The translations under genes were made by a program, and so were the position numbers. This document shows, piece after piece, positions 11,009 to 21,764 of a stretch of DNA of 64,000 nucleotides. Origin of the DNA: Candidatus Oxydemutatoraceae bacterium (GTDB lineage Bacteria > Pseudomonadota > Gammaproteobacteria > Poriferisulfidales > Oxydemutatoraceae); NCBI GenBank assembly GCA_965219575.1, contig OZ244779.1:1740769-1804768 (forward strand), read 5' to 3'. The notes below the pieces were generated by a model. The model was not told the origin of the DNA. It saw nothing but the letters and a program-made list of their open reading frames with translations, and did no database searches. How positions within the stretch are numbered: position 1 is the stretch's first letter; each line of letters opens with the position of its first letter.

Positions 11009-11228
11009 TGTATGACTCTCTGTCTTTTATGTTTACATCAATAACTCTTGGGGAGTTTAGCTAAACCAGCCTACACATCGGTAGGCCATCACACCATAAT
11101 CAGTTAGGCGCAGTGGCAAATGTCAAAGCACTTAACACCTTACACTGGAGATTGCCACTGCTAGTTATATTAACTAATACGGGATTATAGCATAATAACG
11201 GGCGAACTGCACTAATCCATTCCCCGCT

Positions 11229-11710
11229 TGTAGAGGCAGAATAGAGCCGCCGATTGAGCCGGTAGGTCAATCGGCGGCCTTGATGTCCGCCCTTAGGGTG
11301 GCAGGCGCAGCCTGACGGGGTGGTTATAAAAGGGGGCTGTTGAAAAAGTACTGTCTCTGCAAAGTTGCAATCGCTTGCGCCGTGAATATTTGCAAACCAC
11401 TCGTAGGGGCGGACTAGCATGTCCGCCCGTAACGCGTTGTGCCTACACGATTTATACATTCATCCATCCAATTTATGGAAACCAAAACCAAATGGCGCAA
11501 GTGGTTGGATTTTTCAATGCCCGCACTTTTTCAACAGCCCCAAAAGGTTGGCACAGATATAGTGCTGGTCCATTCCCCTCCTCTGGAGGGGTGGCCTATG
11601 CATTTTGCAATGCATGCGTTTAGCAGTCATGTTGAGGTTCTGAACAAAGTCACGCCGATTGACCTACTGGTTCAATCGGCGGTTCTATTCAGCCTGACGG
11701 GGTGGTCGCA
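11229..11710. mobile_element. Cluster of a MITE (11333-11541) and nested hairpin modules
   Basis: GGGGCTGTTGAAAAAG...CTTTTTCAACAGCCCC, a REP near 11403, and GCCGATTGA..TCAATCGGC hairpins on both sides. Confidence 0.8.
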
Positions 11711-11988: not shown

Positions 11989-12076
11989 AAGTTTTAGTTT
12001 CCAAGTAGTTTGTTGTACTGCCGCTACTTTTTCAACAGCTTCATTTCCCCTATCTTTTGGTTTAGAGCGACGCAAC

Positions 12077-12099
12077 AAAAAAGCCGCCCGTAGGCGGCC
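12077..12099 (-). terminator. Intrinsic terminator of the tracrRNA
   Basis: GGCCGCC-TACG-GGCGGCT followed by a T run on the minus strand. Confidence 0.85.
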
Positions 12100-12171
12100 T
12101 TTTGAATGTTGCATATTCACACTTATTAATCCTGATACAAAAATCGTTAATGTGGAATCCCTAATTCAATT
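12077..12171 (-). ncRNA. tracrRNA
   Basis: Plus strand has TCCTGATAC (12130-12138) and CCCTAATTCAAT (12159-12170), identical to the crRNA-sense repeat, so the minus transcript is the anti-repeat; a hairpin and an intrinsic terminator follow. Confidence 0.88.
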
Positions 12172-12176
12172 TTTCC

Positions 12177-12205
12177 AGCGTAGCACACCTTGAATTAAAA
12201 AGCAA
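12177..12205 (-). promoter_or_regulatory. Putative sigma70 promoter for the tracrRNA
   Basis: TTGCTT-17 bp-TACGCT with a TGn extension, about 6 nt upstream of the anti-repeat. Confidence 0.6.
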
Positions 12206-12292: not shown

Positions 12293-15200
12293 ATGGGAAT
12301 TAAATATCGCTTAGGGCTGGATGTCGGTGCCAATTCACTCGGCTGGAGTGTGCTGAAACTAGACACGGATGATAAACCTTATAAAATAGAAAATGCCGGT
12401 GCACGCATTTTCTCCGACGGACGAGAACCTAAAGGCCATAGTACCTTGAAGGCAGTCAGGAGAACAGCACGATCCGCCCGCCGAAATAGAGACAGATTCA
12501 AACAGCGACAGACCTATTTAATAAAAGAACTTGAAAAGGCTAAATTGTTTCCGCCGGAATCCGATACTGCGACGCGCCACGCTATACAAAAACTTGACCC
12601 TTTAGAATTGCGGGCTAATGCGCTGCATGAAAAGCTAGACCCCTACCATATAGGTCGTGCATTATTTCATATAAATCAACGTCGCGGTTTTAAGAGCAAC
12701 CGCAAAGACACCAGCGAAGAGGCTAGAAGCGGTAAGGTCAGTAAATCCGTGATGGCACTATTCAAGAAAATGGGTTTAGTCCAACAAAGTTCTATCCTCG
12801 ATGAACCAGAAAAGCTCTCTGAAGAACAAAACAAATGGATCCGACAAGAGGAAGCCAAACAAAAAAAAGAAGCAATCACTAAATTAAAAGATTTAGACAT
12901 TACTTTTGGTTCGTTTTTGTGGGAACGACGCAAACAACACCCGCCACAGGCAACCCGTGCTCATCCCAACGTAGATGGCAAGTTATACGATCTTTATCCG
13001 ACCCGAGATCTATTAGAAGACGAATTTGACAAAATCTGTGCTAAACAACAAAAATATCACCCAAAACTTTTAAGCGCGGAAGTCGTCAAACATTTGAGAA
13101 AAATTATATTTTATCAGCGACCCTTGAAACCCCAAGAGCGCGGCAAATGTGCTTATCTGTATAAGGCAGGAGAACTCCGCGCTTTCCGAGCAATGCCGAG
13201 CTTTCAACGCTATCGCATCTATCAAGAAGTTAATAACTTGGAATGGGCCGGTCCGAGACAACCATATCGTTTGAGAGATTACCCCGAAGCAAGGGATGCC
13301 GTCGTGACACTATTAGAGAAACCTACTACTAAAAAAGGCAATGTCACCTTTACTAAAATTAAGAACGTACTTAAAGATCTAGGAGTCGCAGAAGGCGAGT
13401 TCAAATTAAATTACGAAACCTTGAAAAGAAAAAAAACAAAAAGAAAAAAAACAAAAAGTAAAAAAAACGAAAAGCAAAAAAAAGACTCGTCAGGTTTGGA
13501 CGGCAATCTCACCTCTAATATTATGCAAAAAGAAGATTGTATCGGAGCGCAGTGGCACGATTGGCCTATAGAAAAACAAGACTCATTCATTGGACTGATA
13601 TTAAACGATAAGCTCAGCGATGTAGAAGTCCGAGATAAGCTAGTGAAAGAATACAAACTTTCTGAGGAAATAGCTACAGTTTGTCTTGAGGAGCATCTGC
13701 CAGAAGGCACGGCACACCTATCCTTAAAAGCTGCCAAATTGCTCACGGAAAAAATGAAAAATGAATATTGTCTGCAGTCCGAAGCGGTGGAGCGTGTCTC
13801 GGAAGAGCACAGCGACTTTGTTAGTCCATTTATAAGATCTACCGAAGAGGGAAAATTATTAGAACGATTACCCTATTACGGAGAGTTTTTTAAAGATGGC
13901 AAACATATAATTCCGGGAACTCTAGATGAGAAAGATGAGCACGACAACTTAAGATTTTATGGAAGTGTGTCCAACCCGACGGTACACATCGCCTTGAACC
14001 AAATCCGCAATGTAATCAACGAACTGATAAAACGATACGGGAAGCCGACTTCCATTGTTATTGAATTGGGTAGAGAATTGCCGGCAGGTAAAGAAAGACG
14101 TAAAGAGATAAAAAGTGAACAGAAAGAGAACCAAACGAATAATGAAGAGATTGATGCAGAACTTAAAGAACTTGGACAGCTTATAAATAGGGATAACAGA
14201 ATCAGGTTTCGGCTTTGGAAGGAATTGGATGAGGAGGATCCTGCCGGACGCAAATGTCCATTTACGGGAGAAACCATCAATATTCATAAAATATTTAGTG
14301 ATGAAGTTGAAGTTGAACACCTTATTCCTTTTAGCAAGTCATTAGACGATAGTTTCTCTAATAAAGTATTGTGTTTAAGGCGAGCAAACCGAGACAAAAG
14401 GCAACAAACTCCATACGAAGCATTTGGCCATAGTCCAGGTGGTTACAACTGGAATAAGATTTTTGAACGTTCTAAAAGTTTGCCCAAAAGCAAGCAATGG
14501 CGATTTGAAAAAGACGCTATGAAAAAGTGGCATCACAACAACGAGTCCGATTTTCTAGCCCGGCATCTAAACGACACTCGATATATCGGCAGATTAACTA
14601 AAGATTATCTTGAAGCCATTTGTCCGTACAACAAAATTGATGTTGTCACCGGAAGATTGACTGCCCTTCTACGTGGTCATTGGGGATTAAACAGTATTCT
14701 AAAAGAGATACGAACCGATGAAGAACTTAAAAGGCTTGGACAAGAGGCTAGTAAAGATAATAGAGTCAGGTATTGGCTTTGGGAAGAATTAAACGAGGAT
14801 CCCAAAGGGCGCGAATGTCCATTTACAGGGAAGACCATTGTCAAGGACGACATATTTAGTGATGAATTTGAAATCGGATACCTCATTCCTGATAGTACAT
14901 CAAAGTGCGACAGTTTCTCTAATAAAGTGTTATGTTCGGCACAAGCAAAACAAGACAAAGGACAACAAACCCCATACGAGGCATTCGGTCATAGTCCCGA
15001 CGATTACAACTGGAATAATATTCTGCAACGCTCCGAAAGATTGCCTGAAAACAAGCAATGGCGATTTTTAGAAGACGCTATGGAAAAATGGCAGAGCAGA
15101 AATTTTGGTAGCAGCAGCTATAATAAAGCAAAGAAAAGCCGCGACGACCATAGGCATCACGCAATTGATGCCATTGTGATCGGAATGACTACGAGAAGTA

Positions 15201-16087
15201 TTTTACAAAAAGTAGCAACGGCTGCCAACCAATCCGAAGAGTTAGACCTTCCGTCTTTATTTAATAAAAAAGAAAATGGTAAAAGCGCAATTGATCCATG
15301 GCTCGGATTTCGTGCAGATGTGAAAAACATAATAGATAATATCATCGTTTCTCATAGAAAAAGGAACAAACAGTTGGGACAAGGTAACACAAAATTAGGA
15401 CGAGATAGCACAAGCGGACAGCTGCATGATAGTACTGCTTATGGCATAGTAACAAAACATGATAATGAAAAGAGTACGGTTGTGGTGCGCCGACCTATAA
15501 AAGAATTATCGGAAAATAGGAAAAAACTAGGATCTATTCGAGATAAGCATTTGAAAGAACAATTTTTAGATGCGTTTGACGGCAATGGCAAGGAGGGCGT
15601 GATGGTTCTAGCTGAACAGAAAAATATCAGAGGGTTGCGTTGTATTCAGGATTTATCAATCATTCCTATTAAGGATAAAGAAGGACGAGAATATAAGGCT
15701 TTGAAAGGGAATAGTAACTGGGGATACGAAATTTACGAATATCCTGACGAACATGAAAAAGCAGGGGAATGGGTAGGATTTCCTATTTCTACTCATGATG
15801 CCAATCAAAAAAACTTTCAACCGGGTGTAACCCATCGCCCGTATCCAACCGCTAAACTTGTAATGCGTTTGCATATTAATGATTATGTAGAAATTATCGG
15901 AGAAGATGGCTCACCGCAAATCATGCGTCTACAGAAAATTTCAGATAGCCTATCTTTTGTGTCTCCTAACGAAGCAAGCACTACAAAGTTCTCTGGCATG
16001 GGTGCTAGTTCCTTACTAAAAGGCAATGCTCGTAAGGTACATATTAGCCCGACAGGACTTAAAAATTACGATGGCAATTGTAGCTAA
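12293..16087 (+). CDS. cas9: Type II-C Cas9 (1264 aa) with a duplicated HNH domain
   Basis: RuvC-I LGLDVG (D10), Arg-rich bridge helix, RRGFKSNR, NPTVH..IELGRE, HNH VEHLIP..NK..AN..K and RuvC-III DHRHHAIDA; no csn2 or cas4 in the locus. Confidence 0.97.
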   Translation: MGIKYRLGLDVGANSLGWSVLKLDTDDKPYKIENAGARIFSDGREPKGHSTLKAVRRTARSARRNRDRFKQRQTYLIKELEKAKLFPPESDTATRHAIQKLDPLELRANALHEKLDPYHIGRALFHINQRRGFKSNRKDTSEEARSGKVSKSVMALFKKMGLVQQSSILDEPEKLSEEQNKWIRQEEAKQKKEAITKLKDLDITFGSFLWERRKQHPPQATRAHPNVDGKLYDLYPTRDLLEDEFDKICAKQQKYHPKLLSAEVVKHLRKIIFYQRPLKPQERGKCAYLYKAGELRAFRAMPSFQRYRIYQEVNNLEWAGPRQPYRLRDYPEARDAVVTLLEKPTTKKGNVTFTKIKNVLKDLGVAEGEFKLNYETLKRKKTKRKKTKSKKNEKQKKDSSGLDGNLTSNIMQKEDCIGAQWHDWPIEKQDSFIGLILNDKLSDVEVRDKLVKEYKLSEEIATVCLEEHLPEGTAHLSLKAAKLLTEKMKNEYCLQSEAVERVSEEHSDFVSPFIRSTEEGKLLERLPYYGEFFKDGKHIIPGTLDEKDEHDNLRFYGSVSNPTVHIALNQIRNVINELIKRYGKPTSIVIELGRELPAGKERRKEIKSEQKENQTNNEEIDAELKELGQLINRDNRIRFRLWKELDEEDPAGRKCPFTGETINIHKIFSDEVEVEHLIPFSKSLDDSFSNKVLCLRRANRDKRQQTPYEAFGHSPGGYNWNKIFERSKSLPKSKQWRFEKDAMKKWHHNNESDFLARHLNDTRYIGRLTKDYLEAICPYNKIDVVTGRLTALLRGHWGLNSILKEIRTDEELKRLGQEASKDNRVRYWLWEELNEDPKGRECPFTGKTIVKDDIFSDEFEIGYLIPDSTSKCDSFSNKVLCSAQAKQDKGQQTPYEAFGHSPDDYNWNNILQRSERLPENKQWRFLEDAMEKWQSRNFGSSSYNKAKKSRDDHRHHAIDAIVIGMTTRSILQKVATAANQSEELDLPSLFNKKENGKSAIDPWLGFRADVKNIIDNIIVSHRKRNKQLGQGNTKLGRDSTSGQLHDSTAYGIVTKHDNEKSTVVVRRPIKELSENRKKLGSIRDKHLKEQFLDAFDGNGKEGVMVLAEQKNIRGLRCIQDLSIIPIKDKEGREYKALKGNSNWGYEIYEYPDEHEKAGEWVGFPISTHDANQKNFQPGVTHRPYPTAKLVMRLHINDYVEIIGEDGSPQIMRLQKISDSLSFVSPNEASTTKFSGMGASSLLKGNARKVHISPTGLKNYDGNCS

Positions 16088-16116: not shown

Positions 16117-17031
16117 ATGCCCGACCAAATCGTTGAAATTACGCAACCGGGTTATTGGTTGAGTAAGTCACGCGGATTTCTAGAAGTTCAAAGCAACGAT
16201 GAAAACCAAATCGGTGGAAAGATACCATTAGACGATATTCTATCGGTTGTTATTTCTACTCCGGGATGTTCTCTATCAACCGTTCTCATAGATTACCTGA
16301 GTCGTCGCAATATCCCCATTACGATATGCGGAGCAAACTACCTCCCCACAACGCTCATCTTACCGATAGACGGTTACAATAGACAATTCCAAGTCATGCA
16401 AAGCCAAACCGATTTATCGGCACCGCGCCGTAAGCGCGCATGGCAAGCTATAGTCAGAGCCAAAATACAAAATCAAGCCGATTTACTGGAGTTTGTCGGC
16501 AAAAATAATATGCAATTAAAACGCTTAATCTCAAATGTGAAATCCGGCGATATCGATAATTGCGAGGCTCAGGCAGCACGCATTTATTGGCAAAGTTTAT
16601 TCGGCGAAGATTTTCGTCGTGACCGCACCGCTATCGATTTGAATACTCCGCTCAACTATATTTACACGGTTATTAGAGCGTGTATTGCTCGCGGGATCAG
16701 TAGTGCAGGATTACATCCTACATTCAGCATACACCATAAAAATCCACAAAATGCATTCAACCTCGCCGATGATTTGATTGAACCCTATCGCCCTATTGCC
16801 GATTGCTTTGTTTGGAAGAGATACTTCAATAAATTTGATCGACTGACCCCCGAAGTAAAAGCGTCTTTAACAAGCATCGTAAATCTACAAATCCCTATAG
16901 GAGACGAAGTATCCCCTTTATCGTTGGCTGCCGTTAAGACATGCCGTTCTTACGCAAGCTATTGCCTCAATGAGGCAACAAATATCTTACTTCCTAAACT
17001 ACCTATGTCTTTAGAAATAGGGGCTTTATGA
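16117..17031 (+). CDS. cas1: Type II Cas1
   Basis: SGDIDNCEAQAARIYW, HHKN..NAFNLADDLIEPYRP. Confidence 0.96.
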   Translation: MPDQIVEITQPGYWLSKSRGFLEVQSNDENQIGGKIPLDDILSVVISTPGCSLSTVLIDYLSRRNIPITICGANYLPTTLILPIDGYNRQFQVMQSQTDLSAPRRKRAWQAIVRAKIQNQADLLEFVGKNNMQLKRLISNVKSGDIDNCEAQAARIYWQSLFGEDFRRDRTAIDLNTPLNYIYTVIRACIARGISSAGLHPTFSIHHKNPQNAFNLADDLIEPYRPIADCFVWKRYFNKFDRLTPEVKASLTSIVNLQIPIGDEVSPLSLAAVKTCRSYASYCLNEATNILLPKLPMSLEIGAL

Positions 17032-17372
17032 GTAGTAACCAAAACCATCTAAGCCCGTATCGCATTATGTGGTTATTTGTAATGTTTGACTTGCCCGTAG
17101 GCACTAAAAAAGAGAGAGAGCAGGCGACAAAATTTCGTCAAGGACTTCTTGATTTAGGGTTTGAAATGTCACAATTTTCAGTATACTTAAAATACTGTCC
17201 GTCAAAAGAAAAATCGGAAGTAGTTAGTGACAAAGTCAAAGTTAAAATTCCGATTGGAGGTAAAGTAGATATTCTGATGATAACCGATAAACAGTTTTCA
17301 GGCATGAAAAGATTTTATGCAAAAACCGAAATTAAAAGCAGTGCAAAACCGAAGCAGTTACATATCTTTTGA
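17028..17372 (+). CDS. cas2: Cas2
   Basis: YRIMWLFVMFDLPV..GFEMSQFSVY..ITDKQF. Confidence 0.96.
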   Translation: MSSNQNHLSPYRIMWLFVMFDLPVGTKKEREQATKFRQGLLDLGFEMSQFSVYLKYCPSKEKSEVVSDKVKVKIPIGGKVDILMITDKQFSGMKRFYAKTEIKSSAKPKQLHIF

Positions 17373-18844
17373 TTATTTTTTTCTACGCAATATAGAAAAA
17401 AGTATCACCACAATAACTGCTTCGGCGTTGTCGGATTATACCATTGAATTAGGGGGTATCAGGACAACAAGCGGAATAATGTTTGGATTCGTGATATTGA
17501 TTATACCATTGAATTAGGGGGTATCAGGACAACAACTTCTGATATAAAGTAATAGCCGCCCATGATTATACCATTGAATTAGGGGGTATCAGGACAACGG
17601 AATGTACTGCAGTATTCTAAAAAATACAGATTATACCATTGAATTAGGGGGTATCAGGACAACTCTAGTTTTGATGGGGTAGAAACAGAATTAGATTATA
17701 CCATTGAATTAGGGGGTATCAGGACAACGGACATGTACTAATTAAAGTACTAATTGAAGATTATACCATTGAATTAGGGGGTATCAGGACAACATGACGG
17801 GGCAGGTGCGTATTGCACATAATGATTATACCATTGAATTAGGGGGTATCAGGACAACTACCATGCAAGTACGCAGTACAATAATCATGATTATACCATT
17901 GAATTAGGGGGTATCAGGACAACGGACATGTACTAATTAAAGTACTAATTGAAGATTATACCATTGAATTAGGGGGTATCAGGACAACATGACGGGGCAG
18001 GTGCGTATTGCACATAATGATTATACCATTGAATTAGGGGGTATCAGGACAACTACCATGCAAGTACGCAGTACAATAATCATGATTATACCATTGAATT
18101 AGGGGGTATCAGGACAACATGATTGAGACACACATAATCCATACTATCGATTATACCATTGAATTAGGGGGTATCAGGACAACGATGTTCGTCTTCCAAT
18201 GTATAACATTCAAGATTATACCATTGAATTAGGGGGTATCAGGACAACGATATTCTCCCACGCCTCACGCGCCGACAAGATTATACCATTGAATTAGGGG
18301 GTATCAGGACAACACAAACTACAAATAACACATAAAACCTCAAGATTATACCATTGAATTAGGGGGTATCAGGACAACACAAAGTTTCCGACACCTGAAA
18401 TTGATACTGATTATACCATTGAATTAGGGGGTATCAGGACAACATGAAGGAAGCGAAGGCTTTGGTTAGAAAGGATTATACCATTGAATTAGGGGGTATC
18501 AGGACAACTACTTCATTATCATAAACATAAGGCACTGAGATTATACCATTGAATTAGGGGGTATCAGGACAACGTTTCAGTGCTACTGAGGCGGCGGAGG
18601 GCAGATTATACCATTGAATTAGGGGGTATCAGGACAACCATTACAAGACACTAACGATTTCAAGTTTTGATTATACCATTGAATTAGGGGGTATCAGGAC
18701 AACGCCAATTCTGACTCGTCCATATAAGACAAGGATTATACCATTGAATTAGGGGGTGACGTTCTCCCAAAATTTAGTACTAATGCTTAAAGTTAGTTTT
18801 TCCGATAAACTAGAGAAGTTAAAAACATTACAGGAGAACTTAAC

Positions 18845-19111
18845 ATGAAGAGAAAACGTTTTAGTGAAGAACAAATCATTAAGGCATTAAAGTCAAATCA
18901 AGCCGGCATGAAAGTAATCGATATCTGTCGTGATCTAGGCATCGCCGAACAGACATTTTATCGCTGGCGCAGCAAGTATAATGGCATGGAAGTGGCAGAA
19001 GCTAAACGCCTGCGAGAGCTTGAAGCCGATAATAGCAAGCTCAAGAAGCTATTGGCTGAATCGGTGATGCAGTGTGAAACACTTAAGGAGGTATTATCAA
19101 AAAAGTGGTAA
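18845..19111 (+). CDS. IS3 OrfA (HTH)
   Basis: MKRKRFSEEQII..TFYRWRSKY; A6G slippery site at 19099-19105. Confidence 0.92.
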   Translation: MKRKRFSEEQIIKALKSNQAGMKVIDICRDLGIAEQTFYRWRSKYNGMEVAEAKRLRELEADNSKLKKLLAESVMQCETLKEVLSKKW

Positions 19112-19929
19112 AGCCGGCGCAACGCAAGCAGATTGTCAAAGATCTAGTGAGCGCGGGTCGGCATAGTGAACGCACTGCGTGTGCCCTTGCCAGTATTAGT
19201 CGCACTGCATATCGCTATCAGGGCAACCAAGCTGATAAAGATCGTCAACTGGAAGCTGCGTTATTGGAGAAGGCAAAGCAATATCCACATTATGGCTATA
19301 AGATGTTGCATGCGCTTTTGAAGAGCGAAGGCCGGGTCGTCAATGTGAAGCGTACCTATAGGCTTTATAAGAAGCTCAGGCTCGAATTGAGAACCAAGAA
19401 GCGCAAGAAGCTGTGTCATCCGCGTGGCGTGCCGAAAACACCGGCAACGGTGAATGAGTGCTGGTCAATGGACTTTGTGCATGACCAGTTTAGCGACGGC
19501 AGATGCTTTCGGGTATTGAACATAGTAGATAACTTCAGCCGTGAATGTGTCGGACAGATTGTTGATGTTTCGATCACCGGTCAACGCGTAGCAAACTATC
19601 TATCCGAATTGATAGAATGGCTCGGTGTGAAGCCGGCACGCATCGTCTGCGACAATGGCACCGAGTTTAGATGCAAGGCGATGTTCCACTGGAGCCGAGA
19701 TCAGCAGGTGGAATTGGACTTTATCCAACCCGGCAAACCGACCCAGAATGCCTTTGTAGAAAGTTTCAACGGCAAGTTCCGAGACGGTTGTCTGAACCAG
19801 TTCTGGTTTCGTTCAATAAAAGAGGCGAGAGAGATTATAGAAGCCTGGCGAATAGATTATAATGAAGTGCGTCCGCACAGCGCATTGGGTTATCAACCCC
19901 CAAGTGTATTTGCGGAGGCTATAGCATGA
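19105..19929 (+). CDS. IS3 OrfB DDE transposase (OrfAB by -1 frameshift)
   Basis: WSMDF, DNGTEF, PGKPTQNAFVESFNG and YNEVRPHSALGY. Confidence 0.95.
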   Translation: MVKPAQRKQIVKDLVSAGRHSERTACALASISRTAYRYQGNQADKDRQLEAALLEKAKQYPHYGYKMLHALLKSEGRVVNVKRTYRLYKKLRLELRTKKRKKLCHPRGVPKTPATVNECWSMDFVHDQFSDGRCFRVLNIVDNFSRECVGQIVDVSITGQRVANYLSELIEWLGVKPARIVCDNGTEFRCKAMFHWSRDQQVELDFIQPGKPTQNAFVESFNGKFRDGCLNQFWFRSIKEAREIIEAWRIDYNEVRPHSALGYQPPSVFAEAIA

Positions 19930-21764
19930 AAACTAACTTTGTATATGGTAATAAAAATGGGGTAACGTCAGGGGTATCAGGACAACAACTTCGTCCGCAG
20001 ACATCTGATGCGCACAGATTATACCATTGAATTAGGGGGTATCAGGACAACAAACGGTATCTGATAGTGAGGGAGCTTTGGGATTATACCATTGAATTAG
20101 GGGGTATCAGGACAACAAAAGTTCGGGTTGGGTTACTAATTCTGGCGATTATACCATTGAATTAGGGGGTATCAGGACAACTAGCTTGTGCCACTGCCCT
20201 TTTGCGTCACAGATTATACCATTGAATTAGGGGGTATCAGGACAACAAAAAGAGAGGTGAGATATGTTTGGATTTTGATTATACCATTGAATTAGGGGGT
20301 ATCAGGACAACAACTTGCGACCTTCAAAACTAGCCTCATGCGATTATACCATTGAATTAGGGGGTATCAGGACAACAATTTCATAAATATCATGATTTAC
20401 TCCAAAGATTATACCATTGAATTAGGGGGTATCAGGACAACTAGATTATCCGACACCGCTCTGGGATCACTGATTATACCATTGAATTAGGGGGTATCAG
20501 GACAACGCGGGTCGTTATTTAGTTCAGCCACATTATGATTATACCATTGAATTAGGGGGTATCAGGACAACAAACGAACAACATTGCTATCACTATCACC
20601 TGATTATACCATTGAATTAGGGGGTATCAGGACAACAAAATGACCCAAATTAATATCTACCAATCCGATTATACCATTGAATTAGGGGGTATCAGGACAA
20701 CATCATAACACTCCTTATTTATCTAACAAACGATTATACCATTGAATTAGGGGGTATCAGGACAACCAAGAGGAACTTCGGCACCTGTATCTGCTAGATT
20801 ATACCATTGAATTAGGGGGTATCAGGACAACATGACGGGGCAGGTGCGTATTGCACATAATGATTATACCATTGAATTAGGGGGTATCAGGACAACTAAA
20901 AGAAACATTACCATTAAAACTCTCCGGATTATACCATTGAATTAGGGGGTATCAGGACAACCCGACAACCAAACCATAATTTTGCTTATGAGATTATACC
21001 ATTGAATTAGGGGGTATCAGGACAACAAACAAACACAAAACACAAAACACAATACTGATTATACCATTGAATTAGGGGGTATCAGGACAACTCGTACCGC
21101 AGATATATCCCACTGCAACTGGATTATACCATTGAATTAGGGGGTATCAGGACAACAATAGTATCTTTTTTGATAGACAAATACAAGATTATACCATTGA
21201 ATTAGGGGGTATCAGGACAACAAATCATCCACATACTCCACAACATCACCAGATTATACCATTGAATTAGGGGGTATCAGGACAACATCCCGGCACCGCC
21301 ATAGACAACCGCAAGCGATTATACCATTGAATTAGGGGGTATCAGGACAACAGTGCCTCTATTATGGCACTGCATTTACTAGATTATACCATTGAATTAG
21401 GGGGTATCAGGACAACCTCCGGGTTGTCACTAACCAACAACCAGTTGATTATACCATTGAATTAGGGGGTATCAGGACAACTAGTAAATCTCCTGCTGTT
21501 GGTTTAAGATAGGATTATACCATTGAATTAGGGGGTATCAGGACAACACCTCTGTCAAACGAGCTACGTTGCCTTCAGATTATACCATTGAATTAGGGGG
21601 TATCAGGACAACACCTCTGTCAAACGAGCTACGTTGCCTTCAGATTATACCATTGAATTAGGGGGTATCAGGACAACCCCCCCGACCAATTAACGATTAT
21701 AAAATTAGATTATACCATTGAATTAGGGGGTATCAGGACAACTACCAACCACAGAATAAAAAAT

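Follow-up and report, generated by a model that had tools for sequence, protein, structure and literature searches.

The architecture of Cas9 is usually treated as fixed, with one RuvC and one HNH domain. The Cas9 described here is encoded in the genome of an uncultured sponge-associated bacterium, within an analysed stretch of 64,000 nucleotides (the window), and resembles ThermoCas9/GeoCas9 and Nme1Cas9 in the order of its parts: RuvC-I, bridge helix, REC, RuvC-II, HNH, RuvC-III and WED/PI. ThermoCas9 and Nme1Cas9 are the nearest solved structures, with 9ar4, 8jtj and 6jdv as the best matches by sequence and fold, and the locus has the canonical type II-C layout of cas9, cas1, cas2 and array. 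The departure from ThermoCas9 lies in RuvC-III, where a loop of 8 residues is matched here by a second HNH domain of 125 aa (Table 1).

Table 1. Features of the double-HNH cas9 gene and the surrounding CRISPR locus (positions within the window)
Feature	Position	Strand	Description
Candidate tracrRNA	12060..12175	-	Ends approximate
cas9	12293..16087	+	1264 aa, type II-C, two HNH modules; single open frame
HNH1 module	14153..14530	+	aa 621-746: last part of L1, the HNH domain, beginning of L2
L2 linker and first strand/helix of RuvC-III	14531..14716	+	aa 747-808, separates HNH1 from HNH2
HNH2 module	14717..15091	+	aa 809-933, duplicated HNH
13-aa linker back to RuvC-III	15092..15130	+	aa 934-946, from alignments
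RuvC-III active-site segment KKSRDDHRHHAIDA	15131..15172	+	aa 947-960, contains H956 and D959
cas1	16117..17031	+	Pfam Cas_Cas1, 96.6 bits
cas2	17028..17372	+	Pfam CRISPR_Cas2, 49 bits
CRISPR array, first part	17434..18757	.	20 full 35-nt repeats and one repeat cut by the IS
IS3-type insertion sequence within one CRISPR repeat	18758..19970	+	ORFs with Pfam HTH_Tnp_1, rve, rve_3
IS3-type orfA	18845-19111		
IS3-type orfB	19105-19929		
CRISPR array, second part	19971..21742	.	27 full repeats

The whole protein matches TIGR01865 (cas_Csn1) with 690.8 bits (cut-off 100) and carries the Pfam domains RuvC_III, Cas9_a and HNH_4, the latter in two stretches instead of the usual one per protein. When the modules were scanned singly, HNH_4 (PF13395, cut-off 22) gave 87.9 bits for HNH1 and 60.8 bits for HNH2, with the profile covered in full (1-54 of 54) by each. 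BLASTP of the two modules (14153-14530 against 14717-15091) yielded 81/126 identities, exactly the count of the original prediction, together with 99/126 positives, one gap and an E-value of 7e-59. At the DNA level the copies are 77-85% identical at an offset of 561-564 nt. HNH2 is flanked by WGLNSIL on one side and by KKSRDDHRHHAIDA on the other, and is thus inserted inside RuvC-III, as had been predicted. The second HNH is a genuine in-frame copy of the HNH module of the same Cas9.

The genome is a single closed contig of 2.37 Mb in which cas9 is present once. Logan contigs of runs X1 (study P1), X2 and X4 (study P2), one of which may be the source sample of the genome, cover positions 13900-15400 unbroken with 0 differences each. 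Run X6 (study P3) provides five pieces over the same region, again with 0 differences; the piece 14553-14907 spans the junction into HNH2, and the piece 14965-15155 the junction out of it. Misassembly, a concern raised with the original prediction, is ruled out by these contigs of three studies showing both copies, by the closed single-copy genome and by the independent orthologues.

Proteins with two HNH segments are few. Among the matches listed, 4 of 120 proteins cover the whole 560-1000 query, and when longer proteins were searched with HNH2 by itself (269 candidates, 39 proteins), P0002-P0005 were the only full matches. The two protein searches give the same four clusters, and these, with the proteins of this genome and of G016 and G018, the carriers detected among 19 family genomes examined, make seven distinct double-HNH Cas9s that are 80-96% identical. 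A scan of genome contigs for relatives found only L002 and L003, and a scan of JGI metagenomes found none. HMMER with aa 621-1000 against 1.84 billion cluster representatives returned 3997 hits, of which the best 150 include no match extending over both copies; since clustering at 50% evidently shows the clade by a single-HNH member, its size cannot be read from this search. The scan of Cas9 collections for double HNH hits, proposed at the outset, has been realized for a subset of Cas9s by local HMM: two segments are present in 7/123 proteins and in none of the other 116 or of 147 further representatives, new among those best 150 of 3997. This census covers the relatives found, and independent duplications in distant Cas9 lineages may exist.

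The closest single-HNH proteins are the metagenomic Cas9s P0006-P0011 (1113-1146 aa), which are 70-80% identical to the query over the full length and fall into the same clade in all trees. In a tree of 51 HNH segments the seven HNH2 copies group together as a clade (100/100) whose stem measures 0.36 changes per site and whose end branches reach at most 0.14. This clade is nested in a clade of 20 rows (100/99) that also holds the seven HNH1 copies and P0006-P0011. HNH2 thus goes back to a single duplication of an HNH that belonged to this small cas9 clade. The copy changed quickly after duplication, lost the E-H pair in 6/7 cases and became unusually acidic. Synonymous divergence between the paralogues HNH1 and HNH2 (dS 0.77-1.48) compares with at most about 0.6 between orthologues over the whole gene. 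That the duplication is real and ancient can be regarded as practically certain.

Alignment of the catalytic residues agrees with the original prediction of an intact HNH1 and RuvC. HNH1 lies in the interval between RuvC-II and RuvC-III and retains the acidic-His pair, the structural Asn and the metal-binding Asn of a single-HNH nuclease (E675, H676, N690 and N699); these residues are kept in 7/7 double-HNH proteins, the E675 position being Asp in P0003. The RuvC residues D10, E591, H956 and D959 are likewise present in 7/7, and among 114 sequences E591, K948, H956 and D959 are invariant and D10 is at least 90% conserved. The corresponding HNH2 positions are G862, Y863, N877 and K886, so that in this genome the acidic-His pair and the metal-binding Asn are absent. 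The predicted change of E-H to GY was found here and in 6/7 copies altogether, only P0005 still having E-H. The predicted change of the second Asn to Lys holds for this genome and P0005 and is not a feature of the module, since Asn is kept in the other 5/7. Decay of the active site was thus stepwise and lineage-specific, because Lys occurs only in this genome and in P0005 while P0005 keeps E-H.

HNH2 of this genome is very probably non-catalytic. The notion that it is an assembly error, or else a third nuclease that still cuts DNA, is hardly credible. An assembly error is contradicted by contigs from three studies that match at every base and by seven independent orthologues; activity is contradicted by the replacements in HNH2 of this genome, where the acidic residue has become Gly, the general-base His Tyr and the metal-binding Asn Lys. 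The E-H pair of P0005 does suggest that the ancestral copy may once have been active.

Of 38 columns with a conservation of 85% or more across 182 single HNHs, 29 are kept by HNH2 in all seven copies, and the nine altered columns, which include H676, S681, L684, D685, D686 and N699, lie around the active site. Comparison of the columns indicates that the core of the fold is kept and that the active site was remodelled after duplication. The net charge of HNH2 is -4 to -10 in the seven copies (-8 in this genome) versus -6 to +6 in 103 single HNHs, the value of -4 in P0004 being inside the range of ordinary HNHs. The predicted replacement of basic by acidic residues stands only by half: HNH2 is unusually acidic, but in this genome part of the contrast is due to basic residues gained by HNH1, whose net charge is +4 here versus -4 in P0002. 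Several conserved basic residues are kept in HNH2 (the equivalents of K691, K702, R726, K734 and R737), so residual DNA binding is possible and the character of HNH2 as an acidic mimic is uncertain.

In the alignment with ThermoCas9, query residue 802 corresponds to residue 712 and query residue 947 to residue 711, which places the insert in the 8-residue loop. The RuvC-III loop measures 151-154 aa in the seven double-HNH proteins. P0006-P0011 have the same flanks at the insertion site and a loop of 32-52 aa instead of HNH2; in P0006-P0009 and P0011 this loop carries a net charge of -2 to -7. HNH2 would have taken the place of a loop whose length and acidity were already considerable in the closest relatives with a single HNH, and the C-terminal part of the linker (aa 934-946) resembles the ancestral loop of these relatives. 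HNH2 ends 13 residues before the conserved active-site segment KK-x-R...H-x-x-D. K947/K948 and R950 of this segment are presumably the counterparts of SpCas9 K974 and R976, going by SpCas9 numbering. An SpCas9 study places K974 and R976 near the RuvC active site and reports that their mutation impairs only non-target-strand cutting (PMC5680257).

Structure prediction is consistent with a folded module. The AlphaFold2 model of isolated HNH2 has a pLDDT of 96.4, with strands at 51-55 and 70-74 and a helix at 75-81, and superimposes on the HNH of GeoCas9 (7mpz) with a TM-score of 0.79 and an rmsd of 2.2 A; HNH2 is therefore predicted to adopt the beta-beta-alpha-metal fold. The alignment behind this model consists of single-HNH proteins, and the pLDDT mainly reflects compatibility with the fold, because these are ordinary HNH domains. 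In the full-length model pLDDT is 75-93 for HNH1 and 45-74 for the poorly defined HNH2, and below 50 for the linker aa 934-946; prediction of a complex between HNH1 (aa 615-750) and HNH2 returned a score of 0.00 (mark 0.32), which speaks neither for nor against a contact between them. The three-dimensional place of HNH2 assumed below follows from its position in the primary structure.

Substitution patterns among three DNA sequences give orthologue dN/dS values of 0.115-0.150 for HNH2, 0.16-0.32 for HNH1 and 0.16-0.27 for the rest of the gene. The nonsynonymous share in HNH2 is 0.40-0.46 versus 0.82 expected, a significant departure from neutrality (p 1.4e-4 to 1.9e-8). Mean pairwise identity among the seven proteins is 87.4% for HNH2 and 82.8% for HNH1; the most conserved segment is aa 747-808, comprising L2 and the start of RuvC-III (mean identity 91.9%), and the least conserved is the 13-aa linker (66%). 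The C-terminal third of these proteins is 81% identical. Taken together, these values indicate that since its early change HNH2 has been under purifying selection as strong as that on the rest of Cas9, in line with the selection originally proposed, and the module is retained in seven orthologues.

Such selection could act on folding or solubility alone, sparing RuvC-III, if HNH2 were a functionless self-folding passenger tolerated in a permissive loop. The length of the RuvC-III loop does vary, from 5 to 52 aa (median 20) in 106 single-HNH proteins, the clade with the insert is small, and comparison with the rest of the gene shows no significant excess of constraint on HNH2 (Fisher p 0.48-1.0). 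Loss of the catalytic residues in steps that differ between lineages is also what would be expected once catalytic constraint was released. In addition, the trees of the N-terminal, HNH1+L2 and C-terminal parts all place the single-HNH proteins P0006 and P0007, which do without the module, inside the double-HNH clade; at least one lineage can therefore dispense with the module or exchange it. Against a passenger, HNH2 has a lower dN/dS than the catalytic HNH1, and 85/125 columns of HNH2 are invariant across the seven proteins, whereas mere foldability should leave surface positions free. The burst on the stem followed by stasis suggests a change of function more than it suggests drift. For P0003 the trees of HNH2 and of the flanks disagree (AU p 0.025 in a post-hoc test), which suggests that the module moved between alleles and was retained. 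On balance a passenger appears rather unlikely, and it is somewhat more probable than not that HNH2 is retained because it has its own function.

The reading we lean towards, with some reserve, is that HNH2 is a pseudo-HNH that does not cut, is maintained by selection and sits where the RuvC/non-target-strand groove opens. HNH1 would still cut the target strand and RuvC the non-target strand, and HNH2 would not cut, acting as a folded pseudo-nuclease module at the groove mouth. A specific role in the groove or at a checkpoint is possible rather than probable. More speculatively still, HNH2 may be an exapted acidic regulator at the groove entrance, which either controls access to RuvC or keeps HNH1 at a checkpoint while the R-loop is still forming; it may also occlude a surface bound by HNH-directed anti-CRISPRs, and the module may spread between cas9 alleles by recombination. 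The allosteric modulator and the dimerisation surface of the original prediction are further candidate roles.

The locus around cas9 has the composition of type II-C, with cas2 ending at 17372 and the array starting at 17434; judged from gene spacing, there is no room for csn2 or cas4. The array comprises 47 repeats, all identical, and its 45 spacers are 30-31 nt long; the repeat split by the IS3-type element is readable at both ends. The candidate tracrRNA consists of an anti-repeat in two halves about 20 nt apart, after which come a hairpin rich in G+C and a run of T; its best anti-repeat/repeat duplex has an energy of -27.9 kcal/mol, and L002 and L003 preserve this block although their flanks diverge. 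A search of Rfam around the locus gave no family at gathering level and two weak sub-threshold matches at 12074-12182, and no tRNA was found upstream. Of the listed data sets that contain the stretch, none is recorded as RNA. None of the 33 spacers of L002 is shared with this array. HNH1, the RuvC residues, cas1, cas2, the candidate tracrRNA and the 47-repeat array are all intact, and with identical repeats, spacer turnover and confirmed cas1 and cas2 the CRISPR system looks live.

The complete turnover of arrays between genomes makes phage pressure plausible, and HNH2 could be a decoy or steric shield against AcrIIC1-like or AcrIIC3-like HNH binders. Genomes with a resident Acr usually show a self-targeting spacer, and none was found among the 45 spacers, whose longest off-array match is 17 nt. 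The faster evolution of HNH1 than of HNH2 could fit inhibitor pressure, and the structural neighbours of the HNH2 model include many HNH-Acr complexes (5vgb, 9j1y, 6j9n and 6jhw), with TM-scores of 0.68-0.76 to the NmeCas9 complexes HNH-AcrIIC1 (5vgb) and HNH-AcrIIC3 (6j9n/6jhw). HNH2 is 30-32% identical to the Nme HNH. A review describes HNH as the target of known II-C inhibitors and AcrIIC1 as hydrogen-bonding its conserved catalytic residues (PMC5859409). An AcrIIC1 decoy, one of the original suggestions, therefore fits poorly and is unlikely, because the catalytic residues contacted by this inhibitor are missing from HNH2 in 6/7 copies, including that of this genome, and the active-site loop is remodelled. 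Moreover, a decoy in cis would merely double the binding sites and be easily saturated. Defence against anti-CRISPRs in general is considered improbable.

HNH2 could also be an interaction surface that dimerises Cas9 or recruits a partner, be it some accessory factor or the adaptation complex of Cas1-Cas2. The strong conservation of a non-catalytic domain speaks for this indirectly, and Cas9 dimers bridged by accessory proteins appear in the fold-search list (AcrIIC3-mediated Nme1Cas9, 6je4, and CbCas9-PcrIIC1, 8wr4). The locus, however, consists of cas9, cas1, cas2 and the array and offers no candidate partner gene, and nothing indicates a dimer, making such a surface very improbable.

In the case described here, one of the catalytic domains of a natural Cas9 was doubled, and the second copy, very probably inactivated, has since been maintained by selection. 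Should HNH2 have a role, the evolution of Cas9 would include pseudo-enzyme modules such as are known from kinases and proteases, and should it be a regulator, this would be the first natural Cas9 regulated by a dead copy of its own nuclease domain. Even an inert HNH2 would remain a clean example of domain-level duplication in a well-studied enzyme. The double-HNH proteins and the nested single-HNH P0006 and P0007 form a tractable pair for strand-specific cleavage, fidelity and inhibitor sensitivity. The tolerance of the RuvC-III loop for a folded insert of 125 aa beside the active site is of interest for domain-insertion engineering of compact II-C enzymes.

In the openly accessible literature searched, judged by titles and abstracts, no Cas9 with two HNH domains was found, which agrees, within that literature, with the expectation that none had been described. 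Among the matches listed there, papers retrieved for two HNH domains concern CBASS Cap5, TIGR-TasH or Argonaute-HNH, and those for Cas9 with inactive HNH concern engineered nickases or conformational states. Other CRISPR effectors retain dead nuclease folds for non-cutting roles, an example being the inactive RuvC of the transposon-associated Cas12k. In such effectors the sole copy of the domain is dead and there is no cutting, whereas in the Cas9 described here a live and a putatively dead copy are combined in one polypeptide.

The window carries a type II-C CRISPR locus. Its array is divided by an IS3-type element into 20 and 27 full repeats, and both halves of the interrupted repeat are still legible. 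No self-match of the 45 spacers to the rest of the genome was found, the longest off-array match being 17 nt. None of the 33 spacers in L002, a related locus, is common to the window's array, while a second related locus, L003, has an array of its own with a variant repeat. Since the repeats are identical, the spacers unshared, the L003 array distinct and the candidate tracrRNA kept in both L002 and L003, the CRISPR system looks active in each lineage.

Features of the CRISPR locus and cas9 (window positions)
Feature	Position	Strand	Description
Direct-repeat stretch	11216-11706		upstream of the tracrRNA candidate, apparently non-coding
Candidate tracrRNA	about 12060-12175	minus	
cas9	12293-16087		1264 aa; TIGR01865, 690.8 bits
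Lys-rich insertion	13424-13483		cas9 aa about 378-398
Copy 1 (HNH1)	14153-14530		cas9 aa 621-746
Copy 2 (HNH2)	14717-15091		cas9 aa 809-933
Shortened C-terminal region	about 15970-16010		cas9 aa about 1229-1240
cas1	16117-17031		Pfam
cas2	17028-17372		Pfam
CRISPR array	17434-21742		47 identical 35-nt repeats, 45 spacers (17469-21707)
IS3-type element	18758-19970		inside one CRISPR repeat; orfA with HTH_Tnp_1, orfB with rve/rve_3, frames overlapping
Halves of the cut repeat	18734-18757; 19971-19986		

Four of the 45 spacers recur inside the array, which suggests internal duplications of repeat-spacer units. The anti-repeat of the candidate tracrRNA is interrupted by ~20 nt that form no pairs with the repeat; both of its halves, like the terminator, are kept in L002 and L003, and the intervening 20 nt are variable. 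The direct repeats upstream are short (17-30 nt, 80-100% identical, spaced 353-405 nt), and no tRNA was found in this stretch.

The two HNH copies of the Cas9 protein are identical at 81 of 126 positions (E 7e-59), exactly the count of the original prediction; at DNA level they are offset by 561-564 nt and share 77-85% identity. Pfam detects two HNH_4 stretches and, scanned alone, each copy covers the full profile (87.9 bits for copy 1 and 60.8 bits for copy 2). The genome is a single closed contig of 2.37 Mb with one cas9. Positions 13900-15400 are recovered as one-piece Logan contigs in three runs from two studies, one of them possibly the source sample, and as five Logan pieces spanning both copy 2 junctions in a third study, all with 0 differences. 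Together with independent orthologues in other assemblies, these data rule out the assembly artefact considered in the original prediction; the duplication is genuine.

Among the matches listed from large protein searches, the architecture is confined to one clade: four protein clusters (P0002-P0005) span all of the queried aa 560-1000, the next matches reaching 55-61% coverage. Two more closed genomes of the same genus (uncultured candidatus Porisulfidus sp.), G018 and G016, encode double-HNH proteins of 1272 and 1244 aa. Counting the window's Cas9, seven different proteins share the architecture, at 80-96% identity; when 123 proteins were scanned with a local HMM for the HNH segment, 7 gave two domains and the other 116 gave one.

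A Lys-rich insertion of ~20 aa in the REC lobe, encoded by an A-rich tandem repeat of period 15/31, occurs only in P0001 (the window's Cas9) and P0002 among 12 aligned proteins and is modelled at pLDDT <50. The window's Cas9 is also missing ~10 residues close to the C-terminal end of its PAM-interacting region, where it differs from all 11 aligned relatives (alignment columns 1285-1300).

The catalytic residues of HNH1 are retained in all seven proteins. In HNH2 the E-H pair is replaced by G-Y in six, P0005 retaining E-H; the predicted loss of catalytic residues thus extends across most of the clade, but the change of the metal-binding Asn to K is limited to the window and P0005. HNH2 is probably non-cutting. 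Of 38 columns with at least 85% conservation among 182 single HNHs, 29 are kept by all seven HNH2 copies, and the changes cluster at H676, S681, L684, D685, D686 and N699; the core is therefore kept and the active site remodelled. Modelled by itself from an alignment of 115 single-HNH relatives, HNH2 reaches pLDDT 96.4 and resembles solved Cas9 HNH domains (7mpz, TM 0.79, rmsd 2.2 A; 5vgb, TM 0.75). In a model of residues 1-1200 (pLDDT 76.5) its definition is weak (45-74), and its secondary-structure elements follow one another as in HNH1. The proposed basic-to-acidic shift is borne out in part: HNH2 is acidic, with net charges of -4 to -10 against a mean of -0.25 (range -6 to +6) in 103 single HNHs and four of seven copies more negative than the lowest of these, but the contrast stems partly from the window's HNH1 (+4, against -4 in P0002). 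The remodelling also bears on the suggestion that HNH2 is a decoy for anti-CRISPR proteins: AcrIIC1 binds HNH catalytic residues (PMC5859409), and a decoy for it is unlikely because HNH2 lacks them.

When 51 HNH segments (seven HNH1, seven HNH2 and 37 single HNHs) are placed in one tree, the HNH2 copies form one clade (100/100) whose stem measures 0.36 changes per site. It falls inside a larger clade of 20 rows (100/99) that also contains all seven HNH1 and P0006-P0011, the six nearest single-HNH proteins, so HNH2 arose once, from this lineage's own HNH. Paralogue dS (0.77-1.48) exceeds whole-gene dS between three genomes (about 0.2-0.6), so the duplication is older than the split between these genomes. 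On its two sides, copy 2 is bordered by sequence similar to the two ends of the ancestral loop in P0006 and P0007, which suggests insertion of a discrete HNH unit into that loop. P0006 and P0007 are themselves nested within the double-HNH clade in N-terminal, HNH1+L2 (the linker after HNH1) and C-terminal trees; the double state requires 2-3 changes, and a single clade appears in 0 of 200 bootstrap trees for each region. In P0003, HNH2 goes with P0004 and G016 but the flanks go with P0001, P0002 and G018 (AU test p 0.025, for a group chosen post hoc after tree inspection). From this nesting and conflict, the module was probably lost or exchanged through recombination between alleles of cas9. 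Identity between the window and P0002 is just 88% in HNH1, against 98% over the N-terminal 600 columns, and the window's HNH1 groups with that of P0003 (99/92); therefore the cas9 alleles of the clade look mosaic.

Between the W-G-L-N and H-x-H-H-A-x-D-A motifs, the seven double-HNH proteins have a loop of 151-154 aa, against 5-52 aa (median 20) in 106 single-HNH relatives; in P0006-P0009 and P0011 it is already 32-52 aa long, with a net charge of -2 to -7. In SpCas9, K974 and R976 adjoin the RuvC active site and their mutation impairs only non-target-strand cleavage (PMC5680257). The KKSRDDHRHHAIDA segment of the window's Cas9 begins 13 residues past copy 2 and contains the invariant H956 and D959. 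K947/K948 and R950 probably correspond to SpCas9 K974/R976, going by SpCas9 numbering, and on that basis copy 2 would lie at the mouth of the groove leading the non-target strand into RuvC.

Selection on HNH2, as predicted, is evident in the three available genes (Nei-Gojobori): dN/dS is 0.115-0.150 for HNH2, 0.16-0.32 for HNH1 and 0.16-0.27 for the remainder of the gene. Nonsynonymous changes make up 0.40-0.46 of all changes in HNH2, where neutrality would give 0.82 (p 1.4e-4 to 1.9e-8). This share is indistinguishable from that elsewhere in the gene (Fisher p 0.48-1.0). Mean identity among the seven proteins is 87.4% for HNH2, 82.8% for HNH1 and 80.9% for the C-terminal third. HNH2 is a real, old, single-origin duplicate of the HNH module within RuvC-III that has lost catalytic residues, kept its fold determinants and is under purifying selection. 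It may be a pseudo-nuclease with a structural or regulatory role at the RuvC/non-target-strand groove. The chief alternative, a tolerated, self-folding passenger, would fit P0006 and P0007, which are without the module, but is opposed by the low dN/dS and by an evolutionary burst followed by stasis.

No description of a natural Cas9 with two HNH domains was found in the literature searched; on this literature and the matches listed from large protein databases, the architecture appears new and of clear interest for Cas9 specialists. In an alignment to ThermoCas9 (9ar4), the best solved relative by sequence, query residues 802 and 947 fall on residues 712 and 711, so that the intervening 144 residues are an insertion at a place where ThermoCas9 has a loop of ~8 residues.
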